DNA from: Rhizodiscina lignyota
Taxonomy: Eukaryota
NCBI GenBank assembly: GCA_010015805.1
Contig: ML978130.1
Span: 1,054,001 to 1,118,000, forward strand
Direction: 5' to 3'
DNA length: 64,000 nt
The notes under the pieces are model-generated. The model ran no database searches and was not told where the DNA came from. It saw nothing but the letters and a program-made list of their open reading frames with translations. Shown here piece after piece: positions 57,096-64,000 of this stretch (within the stretch, counting starts at the first letter, position 1; each line of letters opens with the position of its first letter). Both the position numbers and the translations under genes were made by a program.

Positions 57096-57687
57096 TTAAG
57101 GGAACCAAAGGCGAACAGTAGCTGTGGAGATCCTCAAAACGATACATGTGTTGAGAAACGGTGGCCGCAGCGGGATCGGCTGTTCCCATGCTTGAAGTGC
57201 AGCGAGAGCTTGAGGCTGATAGTTGAGACGACGTATTGCTTCGATTGGGGAGGGGGGCCGCTCGTGACTCTCACATGGCAGCGCATGGATCGCCGCAGCG
57301 CCCGCGCGCCCACGCTATCTCCGCTGCGATTGGGCGAGCGTGACTTCACATGCTCGTCGGCCAGAGCGAGAGTCGCGCGCATCCCACCCCCCCAAACTCT
57401 CTCCAAAGGATCCCACGCTCAACCCCGAACGCCAACCCACCGACCTCGCACGCCCGTGAGACAACCGCCGATCCTTCGTCGTCAGCGACACCCCGTCCGC
57501 ATCCCTCTTCCTCCATCATCGACCTTTGCGACACCTTCTCCTGTCGCATGTAGACCGCACACGCGCTGCGGACCCATCGCAGCGCACTATTCGACGTCAC
57601 ACGCACCGTCTCCTTCGCTACCAGTCGCGGCTCAAACGGCGCTTGCACGCGATAAATCTGCTCCAACGTCGATAAAAATCCATCCAG

Positions 57688-59535
57688 ATGGCGTCGCTGC
57701 AGCAAGAGCGCGCACCACCACCCTCATACAGCTCGCATGACCCCGAGTCGCTCGAGCTGCCGTCCGTACCACAGCACGAAATTGGCAGTCCTAGCAGCAA
57801 TGCGACTTCGGTGACCCTGCCGCACTTGAAGTCCTTGGGCTTGCCAGAGCACAACAGTTACACGCCGAGTCCGCCAGAGTGGCCAGACGCCTCTGCGCCG
57901 TCGTTTTATGGGGGTTACAACTTCTCCACCGCCTTTCCGCCTGCTCCTCATACCGCGCCTCGAAGTGATGCCGGAATTGGGAGCCCAATGGAAGTGTCGA
58001 GCGTCATGAGCCTCGATGAGCAGAACCATCGCGCATCCTCCGTCTCAATGGATGATCCCGACGTTCGCATGGCAGCAGAAGCTCTGTCTGGACTCGGAAA
58101 CCCCGACTTCGCACGATCACCAACATCCTCTTATCGCAGCACTACTATATCTGTGCATCCATCGACCGCTTCTACCAGTACCACTCTTCGTCAGACTCCG
58201 CAAGCTCAATCGCAAGAACCGGAACCCCTCCTTACACTGCTTACAACGAGTCACCCCTGGCTCGGCGCAACGGTCAATGGCTCGCTATACGCCTATGGCG
58301 GCGCGAAACACTACTCTCCTCGCTTTGTTCGAGGTACAGCGGAGTTTATGGAAAGGAATATCGGTTCACCAATGGTCAATACTGTTGGCTTTGTGTCGCG
58401 CCAGACTGGTGTCGACGGGCGCATTCGACGTTACCTTGGCGACCGGCGATTATCTGATGATGGCAAGGATGCAAATGGTAGCAAGAGGCGACGAGTTATG
58501 GTTGGTGTGACCAGTCCAAAGCAGAAAGAGGAAGACATCGAGGCTCAGACAAACGGCGATGTTGCAATGACCAGTCCGAGGAGCGATGCTCAGCGCATGA
58601 GGACAGGAAGTCAGAGCAGCATGTCTATTGTCGAAAGTCTACCCGCATACGATGACAATCGCTCTCCTCATTATGAGGAACTATCTCCTCTCCTGAGGGC
58701 CGAGAAGCAGCAGGAGGGGGAGCCATCTTCGTACGAACAACAACGGCAACGGGTGGAATCCACTTGGCATGGCCAACTCCTCATGACTACTTCAGGACTC
58801 GGTGTCGCCTTGTCAGATTCTTCTCTGCGCAGTCTGAAGTATACACTTTCTGTACTCGGACGTACGACCGACGAGATTGGCAACTTGATGCGTGCTCTCA
58901 AGATTCTTCTAAATGAGTACCAGCAATCAGAGTCATCATCACAATCAAATGGCCAAAATGAGAAAGCCCCGCTTGCTGGACCTCAATATCAGCAGGACCA
59001 GAGACAAGTGTCTGCAGAGAACGAAGAGCGCTCGCGAAGACTCGCCGAGCGTATTAAATCATACTCGAATACACTCTGGAGCCTCCTCCGTGAAACAGTC
59101 GCTACCATCTCCCAATATACCGGTTCTGCGCTTCCCGACAATGCAGCGTCCCTCGTTCGCCGCCAACTCATGTCCTTGCCTCAGCGCTGGCGCACAGCTG
59201 CATCCTTTGGATCCAGTAATCCTAGCGTGAGCTCGGGAGACCCGTCAAGTTCAGATTCTCCGAACCAAGCTGTCATTGCTGCGAATCGTATTCTCAACTT
59301 CGGTCAAGAGAGTTTGGACATGTTGAGTCAAGTCAGCCTCGTCGTTAGTGGAACGATTAGGAGCGCAGAGCAGTGGCTTGATAGTATGGGTCGCAGGCGG
59401 GAGAATGAGGAGGGTTCCTCTAATGTGAGCAACGATGGTGCCGCACAGGTCAACGAAATTGCGCTTGGGCAAGGAAGTATGATCGTCGCTGGCCAGCGTT
59501 GGCATCTCGATTCTAAGGACACTCCCCAGCGATAA
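57688..59535 (+). CDS. Opi1-domain transcriptional regulator (ccg-8-like)
   Basis: SMDDPDVRMAAEALSGL, ESLPAYDDNRSPHY, TTSGLGVALSDSSLRSLKY, SQYTGSALPDNAASLVRRQLMSLPQRW. Confidence 0.88.
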   Translation: MASLQQERAPPPSYSSHDPESLELPSVPQHEIGSPSSNATSVTLPHLKSLGLPEHNSYTPSPPEWPDASAPSFYGGYNFSTAFPPAPHTAPRSDAGIGSPMEVSSVMSLDEQNHRASSVSMDDPDVRMAAEALSGLGNPDFARSPTSSYRSTTISVHPSTASTSTTLRQTPQAQSQEPEPLLTLLTTSHPWLGATVNGSLYAYGGAKHYSPRFVRGTAEFMERNIGSPMVNTVGFVSRQTGVDGRIRRYLGDRRLSDDGKDANGSKRRRVMVGVTSPKQKEEDIEAQTNGDVAMTSPRSDAQRMRTGSQSSMSIVESLPAYDDNRSPHYEELSPLLRAEKQQEGEPSSYEQQRQRVESTWHGQLLMTTSGLGVALSDSSLRSLKYTLSVLGRTTDEIGNLMRALKILLNEYQQSESSSQSNGQNEKAPLAGPQYQQDQRQVSAENEERSRRLAERIKSYSNTLWSLLRETVATISQYTGSALPDNAASLVRRQLMSLPQRWRTAASFGSSNPSVSSGDPSSSDSPNQAVIAANRILNFGQESLDMLSQVSLVVSGTIRSAEQWLDSMGRRRENEEGSSNVSNDGAAQVNEIALGQGSMIVAGQRWHLDSKDTPQR

Positions 59536-60142: not shown

Positions 60143-62006
60143 TCACTCGCCCAAAAGCGCCGTTCTCTCATCAGCATCTCTACTACTCTCATGCCCTTCA
60201 CCGCGCTTCTTTCCACCCAGTAGAAATGCAGGCACATACCGCCTCCAACCCCTTCCTTTCAACCCGCTCCCATCCTCAAGCACCTCCTCCCCATCCATCT
60301 CAAACTCCGCACTCCTCCTCGCCCAAAGCCATCCCCTCCTCTCCCGCTTCCACGCACTCCCAATCCTCCTCACCTCCCCCGCACCCAACCCCTTCCCATC
60401 GCCATCATCCTCAATGACAATCTCCCACCCATACCGCCCCGCTCTGAGCGCGCGCCAACAGACCGCGATGCTCTTGAACAGGACGTACAGGATGAACAGC
60501 CCCACGATGGTGGACGCGCAAGTGATGAGCGCGGCGAGGAGAGTGATCGGCGAGCAGTAGCAGCCGAGTGCAGGTGTGCGCAGCTCGTAGCGCTCGGTCT
60601 CGAGAGGACAGATGGGATCGTTGTTGTAGGCCTTTGAGAAGGGCGCGAGGAGAGGGGCGGGGTTGGACTGCGGAAGTGGGACGCAGGTGGCGGACTGGTG
60701 AGTTGAAGGTGTTAGTGAGTTGGACGGTTGAGGTGGCGAGAATCGCGAGATTTAGGTGAGGTTCCAGGAGAGAAATACAGAAGAAGAGAAAGAGGTGTGT
60801 GTTAGTTGTAGGAAGCGGAGAATAGCAATACAAAGAAGTAGAAGGAATTGAGCAGGTTCGCTGCGAGAAAGTAGACCAAGCTGCAAACCACAAGAAAATG
60901 AAACAAGCTCAAAGAGAGCACGATGTAAACAGAAGAATTCGCTGCGAGCAAAAGCAATTCACTTTGACCAGTAAGGGTGGGCCGAACGCCTGCTCTACCA
61001 CGCCAAAATGCCCCAAATACGCCTGCAGCCCGAACGCGCTAATTTTTATATAATATATACAACTCGCATATTCCTAATCCCTGCCTTCGGGCATTTGGCG
61101 AGATTCGGTGATGTGGTCGAGTTGGGACCATGTCACCTTTGGTAATCTTGTGAGTTTAAACGGAAAGAGCAGGCACTAGTACAGGTTAACCATTTGCAGA
61201 GAGTCCCTTTTTTTTGCTTCTAGTGGCCGCAAGTTCGAATTCCGGTCCCTACCCTCATTTTTTTTCTTTTCCTTTTTTTTGGGTTTAATCCATAGGTGCC
61301 CAGTAACGGACAAAACCTCATGGTACTGGGCATGAGTAGTCCTAAAGATGACACTAAGACTATCCGTTATTGTTTTTTTGGTCTCCTGTAGGGTCGGTTG
61401 TAACCCCACCCTTGCCATCTCTTTTTCTTCTATAACGTGTCTCTGTCATTCCTATTTTTCTCTCCACAGGACCACAAATGACCTTGAACGCAGGAAGAAC
61501 ATCGATTTTGGAGGTAAGATCTGTTCGCCGGCCTCATCTTACGAACTTTCTAATTTGCGACCCCCGGTAAATACTGCTCTTGGAGTTTTCGGTACTCCTT
61601 CTGCGGGCCAAAAGCGTTCGCGTCCACGCAAGAATCGCCTTTCCAGCCAAGGTCACCACGACGGGAGGAATCCTCCTCTTCAGACAGCCAGAATCCTCAA
61701 CAGCAAAGCAAATACAGCATTACGGCGAAAGGAAATGTAAAAATGACATTGTATTGCAATAGTCTTCGCATTTTAAAGAGTAAAAAGTTGGAATTGCAGG
61801 TAAAGAGACCATAACGCGAAGTACTATGATATTAAACTTACAAAGGGACACCATCCGCAGTATGCATCATCCTTCATGCAGTCTCCGCAATCTTGGATCT
61901 TCCAGCATCGGAGGAAGCGGTCGAGGTCGTCCTCCGAGTTCTTGAATCGGCTCAGGAACGAATCAGGCAAGACGGATGAAGCGTTCGCGAGCTCTGCAGA
62001 CGCCAT
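60143..62006 (-). CDS. Small PSI-like Cys-rich single-pass membrane protein; exon 1 62006-61842, exon 2 60694-60143, 1147-nt intron
   Basis: CWKIQDCGDCMKDDAYCGWCPF joins in phase 0 to SATCVP...ICPLETERYELRTPALGCYCS and a TM helix. GTAAGT donor, CTAAC branch, CAG acceptor. Confidence 0.85.
61082..61215 (+). ncRNA. Candidate Pol III-type structured small RNA (unidentified)
   Basis: TATATAA at 61047, TGCC-TTCG-GGCA hairpin followed by TTTGG, 12-bp hairpin with tandem G-U pairs, T8 run, and near-B-box GTTCGAATTCC at 61233. Confidence 0.5.
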
Positions 62007-62330
62007 TTGGGATGGATTAATTCCTTACTCTGGAGCATGTACAGTCGATGGACGAGAAAGGCTTCAATTATTTCCAAGGAAGGCGAGGACAACGGAATGT
62101 ATTAGCCATCTACCGGGATGAGACGAAGTTAGGTTGAGACGACGTCCAACTTGGCGCGGCGCTAGGATCGCACCATGCCTTTCCTCGGTCTCCACTGTTC
62201 TCGAGACAATCACAAGAATTCGGATTTCAAGCGAGTCTCAGCAATACATTTATTGATCGCCAAATAATTGAACTCCGAATCTTTTTATCCCCTTTGAGGG
62301 TGAAGACAGCCATGTCTCTCGAAATGTCAA

Positions 62331-64000
62331 TTGAAAGACTCTCCCCAAGTCCCGACGAATCCATCGGTAGAGATCCTCCTTGATTATAATGCAGACACTG
62401 AGCTAAAGACAAATACTTCGCGTTCGACGGCGCTCCACGTGGCTGCAAGTCATGGGTATGTTGAGATCGTTGAGACTCTTATAAAGAAGCGCGCAAGTAT
62501 CGATGCGATAGATCTCAATGCGATAGATTTCGATGGATGGTCTGCGTTACATTACGCTGCAAGCAAGAACAACCTCCCTTTGGCAAAGGCACTCCTCGAA
62601 AACGGTGCAAATACCGGACTAAAGACGCGCGGTACGGGTCATACTGCGCTCCACAAAGCTGTAGATGGTAAGTACGTCGAGATGATAAACTATCTCATAA
62701 AGCAAAAAGCAACAAATATCGACGAGACAGACGATTATGGGTGGTCTGCTTTACATCACGCCACGGACAAGAGGTATATATCTGTACTGGAGGCACTTAT
62801 CCGAAAAGGCGCGAAAATGGAGCTAGGCACAAGCACTACAGGTGCGACACCGCTACACCTAGCTATATATCGTGGATCCTTCAAGGTCGTGGAATTTCTC
62901 ATCAGGAAGAAGGCAAACGTCTGTGCAATGACTTGGGAAGGCGAAACAGTTCTACACATTGCTCTACAATCTGCATGGGATGACGAAAGCGTGGGAGCCC
63001 AGGCAAATAATACAGGGGGTGGAAACAGGATTTTGGATCACATCATAAAAAATATTGACAAAGGGAAGCAGTGGCAGGAGCTATTGAACGTCGCTCGACG
63101 TGAAGAGAATCGATCTAGATTGAAATACTTGGTAGAGAGAATGGATAATGGGGACATGACAAGGTGGATGCCTTTGGAACGCATCTGGCTTGCTATGAGT
63201 GAAAAAAGGTTTCATGGATTGAAAGACAATCTCAGAGCTGAGGTTGGCCTCAACGCGTTTACAAGTAACATGAAGCAGGAGCTCACCGGCAATTGTGATG
63301 TTCTTAAGCTTGCAGCGTGCCTTGGAGAAGATGAGATTGTGAGGTGGCTTCTTAGAACTAGACACTGGTCCGAATCAGAAAAAGAAGAAGCGAAGAAGCG
63401 AACCAAGAGGCCTCAGTGGGTTACAAAGGAAGCCTTCGAAAGATTGAATGACGGGAAGCTCATCTGGGACACCCCATTTGTCCGGGATGGGAAAAGGGCG
63501 GCCGAAAAGTTTCGTCGACCTTCGCCAAAAGGGCTTGCCGAAAGTTTGCACGAGAACAAGCTTAAAGCTGCTATTATGGATTTTGTTGTCCATGATCAAC
63601 AAGTCGATTTCATGTATTTCGACCGCGATGTCTCCCAAATCATTTACGGAAAGGATGGCGCTGCCGGAGGAGAAACACTCAAAAAGTTTGCAAAGGACGC
63701 CGCAACGCAATTGGAAGATCCAACCATATTCCAGCCGGAATTGCGAGGCAAATGGCCCAGCTTCAGGTGGATACACCTACCCGCTAATTGTGTGAGTAAA
63801 AACAACCCACCCAAAAGCTAAGAACAATTATTGATATTACCCAGATAGATTGGATGAACGTAAGTAGCTCTTATGCTGCTCACAAGAATGGAGTTAACAA
63901 TTTACTCTTTAGGACATAACCTTATCCATATATCTTGAAAAGGATACAAGGAAGGATAATTGGCAAAGCACATTGCAATCTCTACGGCAAAGTTGGGATG
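62331..64000 (+). CDS. Ankyrin-repeat protein, 3'-partial (continues beyond the window); 5' end unclear
   Basis: About six ankyrin repeats (TALHVAA, GWSALHYAA, GHTALHKAV, GATPLHLAI, GETVLHIAL). FRWIHLPAN precedes introns, a motif I associate with fungal ankyrin/CorA-like fusion proteins. Confidence 0.85.

Follow-up and report, generated by a model that had tools for sequence, protein, structure and literature searches.

What lies antisense within the long intron of a fungal gene for a PSI-domain membrane protein, and is it still a gene? The initial annotation of this DNA had marked a Pol III- or U6-like unit there and had left three options for it: a non-U6 Pol III RNA, a milRNA precursor or a diverged U6 paralog. 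To choose among these, the host gene, the promoter-like 5' end of the unit, its body and its 3' end have each to be compared with genuine fungal U6 genes. Throughout the text, "the window" denotes the whole 64-kb stretch of DNA that was analysed.

The host gene is read from the - strand, and its product of 238 aa matches a public protein, P0001, with 100% identity; the source of P0001 assigns it to Rhizodiscina lignyota (Dothideomycete) and calls it hypothetical. The parts of the gene are as follows.

61842..62006, - strand: host exon 1, 55 codons (MASAE...CGWCPF), the first half of the PSI domain
60695..61841, - strand: host intron, 1147 nt, GTAAGT ... ACTAAC ... CAG, with the candidate U6-derived unit antisense inside
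60143..60694, - strand: host exon 2, 183 codons and a stop (SATCVPL...), with a membrane span and the C-terminal ERTALLGE

Because P0001 carries ...CGWCPF fused directly to SATCVPL..., the intron is 60695-61841, and the exact length of 1147 nt that had been proposed for it is borne out by a public protein. A search of Pfam with 12 open reading frames (ORFs) of the host intron gave no match below E=0.06. One open stretch of 48 codons in host sense (61550-61696, - strand; GFWLSEEEDSS...) has no Pfam match and is missing from P0001.

The host protein family is widespread, with 206 proteins at E<=0.001. In the gene calls of two close relatives (P0028 and P0037), CGWCPF is followed directly by 'VS...' (GTAAGT); since both calls read from CGWCPF into the intron, the intron sits at the same position in these relatives. 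When at least 117 fungal U6 loci were compared by tblastn with 151 proteins of the host family, the matches were spurious (best E 0.005-0.007), and thus no sign of genuine U6 genes inside the intron of the host gene was obtained from this comparison. A repeat search found no copies of the intron elsewhere in the 64-kb window. In a whole-genome DNA run, which is probably the window's own source, a single contig covered 60600-62100 with 0 differences, and no second contig of that run covered this region at 95% likeness; coverage by one contig argues against a young repeat family. As to the neighbourhood, a homologue of an Opi1-domain transcription factor (E 3e-22) lies at 57676-59535 on the + strand, and a gene for an ankyrin-repeat protein (62304-63821, + strand) diverges from the host gene across a spacer of ~300 nt.

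The reference set used for comparison with the unit consisted of the same fungal U6 loci (at least 117), which came from metagenome contigs and had been found by a gapped pattern of short U6 motifs. Genuine loci in this set are very uniform. Counts of 5' ends and TATA boxes were made on the 93 distinct loci with enough upstream sequence, and a combined U6 and promoter HMM was built from 66 intronless loci, each with 45 nt of upstream sequence. Two elements at the 5' end of the unit bear on its origin.

61047..61060, + strand: TATA region TATATAATATATAC, with TATAWA at 61047 and 61054, 36 and 29 nt upstream of G61083
61083..61098, + strand: U6 5' module, a GCC-UUCG-GGC stem-loop followed by AUUUGG (the yeast A block region), with G61083 as the putative transcription start

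The TATATAA previously noticed at 61047 is present. A likeness to the U6 5' stem-loop and A box had also been noticed, and the link proved stronger than was then held: positions 61083-61098 are identical to the first 16 nt of U6 (16/16), and this 16-mer recurs in 74/93 genuine loci, the 17-mer from 61082 being common to 24/93, among the matches listed. Within the window, TGCCTTCGGGCATTTGG at 61082-61098 is unique even if up to 3 mismatches are allowed. The spacing of the TATA box is also that of genuine genes. Among the matches listed, the nearest TATAWA lies 27-31 nt upstream in 32/93 genuine loci, or 32/50 of those having a TATAWA within 60 nt, and the site's TATATA at 61054 falls at -29, the genuine mode being -28 to -30. 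In sequence comparison, the A block region of the candidate is identical to that of genuine U6 genes; the placement of the A block in the ATTTGG region follows general knowledge and an excerpt of a review (PMC5855946). With the combined HMM (nhmmer), the top match of the whole window was 61055-61099 (E=0.0019), and with an HMM of U6 only, the top match of the window was again at the candidate 5' end (E=0.74). In view of the 16/16 identity, the TATA distance and the E value of 0.0019, we conclude that the candidate 5' end and its TATA box come from a U6 gene.

The body of the unit gives another picture. ACAGAGA and the catalytic core had been reported as absent, and they are: no ACAGAGA occurs on the + strand from 50978 to the end of the window, the nearest look-alike on that strand being GCAGAGA at 61196-61202, and alignment recovered no AGC triad, internal stem-loop or conserved 3' region at the site. 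When the U6 body was aligned to 61099-61207, leaving out the T run, the score was 14.5 versus 9.1+-3.6 for shuffled sequences, a value reached by 79/1000 shuffles and 116/1000 natural stretches, with the reverse complement scoring 15.5. Without gaps, the identity was 26/78, equal to the control mean. An apparent body signal seen at first (reached by 3/500 shuffles and 1/500 natural stretches) was due to the terminal T run, and was gone when this run was removed. A blastn match to a U6 subtype that bears an insert (L013/L055/L058) extends as far as 61113 (28/33), and a test of the body against that subtype gave a chance-level result. A search of Rfam had been suggested by the initial annotation, and no family claims the site: there were 0 matches at the gathering score over the whole 64 kb, and four sub-regions around the site gave noise and no U6 at E<=10.

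A working U6 with its core split among several mRNA-type introns was also considered. Among the matches listed, mRNA-type introns of ~50 nt are found in at least 14/90 distinct genuine loci, L116 having two of them around a 6-nt exon, and as many as four introns per U6 gene are recorded for fungi in an excerpt of PMC5855946. Nonetheless, an intron-aware alignment of 61061-61400 (GT/GC..AG) rebuilt nothing past the first 16 nt, nearly all of its score coming from the 16-mer. Given also the missing + strand ACAGAGA, the failure of nhmmer to find a U6 core exon elsewhere in the window, and the presence in the would-be introns of T8 runs that would stop Pol III, such a split but working gene is next to impossible.

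One further stretch downstream may belong to the same origin.

61342..61379, + strand: CTAAAGATGACAC ... T7, a possible second U6-derived fragment from the 3' part, its strand and order agreeing with those of the 5' module

Taken alone, CTAAAGATGACAC at 61342-61354 is not significant (nhmmer E=18-30). It resembles the 'AG|ATGACA|GTAAG' mini-exon region of L116 at 18/23 positions, and the T7 lies at about the right distance; a second U6 fragment at this place is no more than possible. Of the "faint echoes" of the U6 core that had been described, the motif at 61342-61354 is thus there as reported, but the likeness to the core is at chance level. A second small hairpin of 9 bp, TGCCCAGTA ... TACTGGGCA, was seen at 61298-61336 (+ strand), overlapped by a CTCATG/CATGAG inverted repeat; it sits between the cluster of T runs described below and the GATGACAC motif.

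Between the 5' module and this fragment, the unit contains several elements resembling the 3' portion of a Pol III gene.

61150..61199, + strand: putative mRNA-type intron, 50 nt, GTGAGT ... TTAAC ... CAG (61197-61199)
61208..61215, + strand: first T8, resembling a Pol III terminator, 126 nt after G61083
61258-61265 and 61273-61280, + strand: two more T8 runs
61232..61242, + strand: B-box-like AGTTCGAATTC, 149 nt after the start, with 2 mismatches to GGTTCGANTCC

The signals of the 50-nt intron suggested earlier are present in the sequence, and its removal would leave a first exon of 67 nt and a last exon of 8 nt before the U tail. Introns of such size and place are frequent in real fungal U6 genes among the matches listed, which supports a U6 paralog. 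In that same list, an intron follows nt 64 in 4 genuine loci (L017, L041, L106 and L116), and in 3 others (L042, L043 and L087) it follows approximately nt 76 and leaves a last exon of ~18 nt before the T run. The T8 at 61208-61215 is likewise confirmed, and the clustering of T runs is beyond chance, 4/7 of the tracts of seven or more Ts in the window falling at 61208-61379 on the + strand. This first terminator-like run at nt 126 differs from those of genuine loci, where termination falls at nt 94-107 among the matches listed. Further T runs behind the terminator are shared with real genes, a second run of at least six Ts occurring within 120 nt in 23/65 intronless genuine loci among the matches listed. 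Statistically, the case for a B box is not sustained. The one-mismatch B box claimed downstream of the unit has in fact 2 mismatches, and matches to GGTTCGANTCC at this level are at chance in the window (39 seen versus 57 expected). Even in genuine loci, a B-box match with at most 1 mismatch at +122 to +282 was found in 15/91 only, among the matches listed.

The region 61216-61257 is arranged like the 3' half of a tRNA, though it lacks an anticodon arm (GCTTCTAGTGG...CCGCAAGTTCGAATTCCGG-TCCCTAC-C...T8), comprising an A-box-like TAGTGG, a T-arm-like stem, a 7-nt acceptor strand, a trailer and a T run; it is called by neither ARAGORN nor Rfam. A tRNA gene or tRNA-derived SINE was rejected on the grounds that ARAGORN gave 0 calls, that no tRNA of Rfam matched at E<=10, that no other copy is present in the window and that the genome run has a single contig on this stretch. 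A box C/D or H/ACA snoRNA was also rejected, no snoRNA family of Rfam matching at E<=10; by eye, a C-box-like GTGATGT was all that could be found, with no CTGA downstream. A scan for bacterial-type promoters and terminators yielded nothing of use.

With these elements in hand, two further readings can be weighed. The first is that a TATA box, a UUCG hairpin and T runs, none of them related to U6, have met by chance in an AT-rich intron. The E value of 0.74 from the U6-only HMM for the 5' match, that of 18-30 for the 3' motif, the chance-level B box and the empty Rfam search would all agree with such an accident. However, simple arithmetic predicts an exact copy of the 16-mer approximately 0.016 times per 35-Mb genome, and here that copy, which is the 5' end of 74/93 genuine loci among the matches listed, stands at the modal TATA distance (E=0.0019), is the top match of the window for both HMMs, and is followed by a T8 on the same strand; an accident is highly improbable. 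In the second, the site would be either a regulatory block in the first intron of the host or a core promoter from which Pol II makes a spliced antisense lncRNA. This reading draws on the CT-rich tracts that follow the TATA box (61203-61284) and on several + strand sites that resemble splice signals, namely GTGAGT (61150), an acceptor (61469) and a donor (61515). It is very unlikely in our judgement, as it offers no account of a 5' end that is identical to that of U6 and lies at the U6 distance from the TATA box, and no coding potential or Pfam match was found (0/12 intron ORFs below E=0.01).

In the place expected for the ACAGAGA/AGC/internal stem-loop region of U6, the unit instead contains a hairpin.

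61096..61153, + strand: hairpin; upper stem 12 bp, lower stem 8 bp, loop 7 nt, G-U pairs 4

The upper stem is formed by GGTGATGTGGTC (61107-61118) and GACCATGTCACC (61126-61137), and its extension by GCGAGATT and AATCTTGT. The stretch 61096-61155 folds at -26.6 kcal/mol (z -5.14), none of 200 shuffles being as stable, and it ranks 71 in stability among 25,578 segments of 60 nt in the window. The - strand reaches -14.5 only; the difference comes from four pairs of the stem that are G-U on the + strand and that account for all non-Watson-Crick pairs of the hairpin (4/4). The hairpin at 61107-61137, its extension and the preference for the + strand conferred by G-U pairs, all of which had been proposed before, are therefore confirmed. 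A stable stem of ~20 bp, which is one criterion of the milRNA type, is found here. Taken as a whole, the unit does not fold better than chance (z -0.94 to -1.07), and the spliced form has z -2.14, with 9/300 shuffles as good. A search of the window revealed 0 look-alikes of the unit and no targets of the hairpin arms with at most 3 mismatches.

The hairpin raises the possibility that a U6 paralog has here taken on a new function. The promoter, the 5' stem-loop with its cap and A-block signals, and the terminator would then have been kept by selection to drive a non-U6 hairpin RNA, which could serve as a milRNA precursor made by Pol III or, as a structured antisense RNA, could act on the intron of the host gene. 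Several observations point in this direction: the parts relevant to a promoter are the only ones conserved, and perfectly so, next to an unrelated body; the contrast between a 22-base module and an unrecognizable body is unlike the outcome of neutral point mutation; the hairpin is stable and, through its 4 G-U pairs, specific to the + strand; and it is followed by an intact-looking 50-nt intron and then by T8. Against it stand the absence of look-alikes in the window and the single contig of the genome run on this stretch, the lack of hairpin-arm targets with at most 3 mismatches in the window, the whole-unit fold, which is not significant, and the B box at chance, to which must be added that relics are commoner than new genes. 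We regard a new function as the main rival of the reading preferred below, though a less likely one. A precedent for the kind of transcript is offered by Neurospora, whose major milRNAs are transcribed by Pol III according to an excerpt of PMC3547838. A more specific version, in which the unit amounts to a natural "shRNA gene", is unlikely: a duplicated U6 would keep its promoter, cap-signal stem-loop, intron and terminator, its body having been swapped for a 20-bp hairpin. That Pol III would make from it a capped hairpin RNA, as a milRNA precursor or a structured antisense RNA, antisense within the first intron of the host gene, we likewise hold to be improbable.

The unit has ceased to be a U6: it retains the promoter elements that lie outside and at the 5' end of the gene, and its catalytic body is gone. 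Of the three options of the initial annotation, the diverged U6 paralog fits best. We lean, with limited confidence, toward a U6 gene copy that has no U6 function, that is, a decayed paralog or pseudogene on which no selection for function acts, given that fungi often have additional U6 copies and that relics are more numerous than new genes. Fungal genomes contain a mean of 2.3 U6 copies, and up to 20, as given in an excerpt of PMC5855946. The parent of the decayed paralog was probably an intron-bearing U6 gene, whose skeleton would have been kept in an exon 1 of U6-like length (67 nt versus 64 or 76), followed by an intron of 50 nt, a last exon of very few nucleotides and a T run, the core of exon 1 having apparently been exchanged for a hairpin-forming stretch of similar length. 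With its TATA box and A-block region intact, the unit may still be transcribed by Pol III from G61083 to the T8. The product, antisense to the host intron, would be ~130 nt long (~80 nt after splicing) and would presumably carry a U6-type cap and the proteins that bind a U tail; this RNA is taken to have no selected function. Pol III transcription of the unit is itself something that we infer by analogy with genuine U6 genes.

Some points count against a relic. A perfect 22-base promoter and 5' module beside a randomized body is not what neutral decay would leave, so that local replacement or selection on the promoter would be needed. In addition, the stability of the hairpin and the fact that its non-canonical pairs are all G-U hint at selection on the RNA, and the spliced form of the unit folds better than chance (z -2.14).

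The resemblance of the unit to known systems is partial in every case. Like fungal U6 of the SNR6 type (RF00026), it has a TATA box ~30 nt upstream, the identical first 16 nt, a T-run terminator with more T runs behind and possibly a downstream B block; unlike fungal U6, it is without ACAGAGA, the AGC triad, the internal stem-loop, the conserved 3' region and any Rfam match. The intron-containing U6 genes of the S. pombe type share with it a GT..AG intron of ~50 nt, a branch-like TTAAC and a short last exon before the T run, but the exons of the candidate do not encode U6, its intron is putative, and its first exon measures 67 nt rather than 64 (L017/L041/L106/L116) or ~76 (L042/L043/L087). 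As an extra U6-derived copy without U6 function, it is comparable with the U6 pseudogenes and variants of mammals and of multi-copy fungi. Human U6 numbers more than 900 copies, mostly dead, in the account excerpted from PMC5855946, and most mammalian copies are retroposed RNA that lacks a promoter in that excerpted from PMC4476161. Unlike these, the candidate keeps the promoter and loses the body, and so arose at the DNA level. With the milRNA loci of Neurospora crassa (PMC3547838, in excerpt) it has in common a hairpin, Pol III (putative here) and a filamentous ascomycete as host; unlike them, it is a predicted locus, known here from its sequence.

The unit combines a U6 promoter, a hairpin and a T run. 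Synthetic U6-promoter shRNA cassettes have the same order, namely a U6 promoter, a hairpin and a T run. The candidate differs from them in that its hairpin begins at nt 14, behind the native U6 stem-loop, that an intron-like stretch is present and that it is natural. U6 gene copies and U6 introns are already known in fungi, and no U6 copy having the promoter, 16 bases and a hairpin in place of the core was described in the literature searched (fungal pseudogenes, paralogs and truncated U6). If transcribed, the unit would represent a route from a U6 duplicate to a new Pol III small-RNA gene, and a counterpart in nature of engineered U6-hairpin cassettes. If dead, it would be an ordinary pseudogene, yet a useful warning: annotation based on Rfam overlooks it, and a motif search for "U6 promoters" with which to express guide RNAs in fungi would take it for a real U6 gene.

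Some features of the reference loci themselves deserve mention. The 6-nt exon of L116 is ATGACA, and L057 has only the second of the two introns that surround it. The subtype made up of L013, L055 and L058 contains an extra 12-nt hairpin (CCAG-GTTA-CTGG) after ATTTGG, with TATCATAAG in place of the TATA box; in L055, two such hairpin-insert U6 genes are arranged in tandem, 199 nt apart. The U6 copy L016 probably represents a pseudogene next to a tRNA: its 3' half (…CCCCTGAACTAAGATTCAC…) is mutated, it lacks a T run, and the apparent start of a tRNA gene follows. In seven loci (L005, L028, L034, L035, L065, L082 and L115) the gene closes with ...GCTAAAAAATTTAG and has no run of five Ts, so their terminator is an unusual one.
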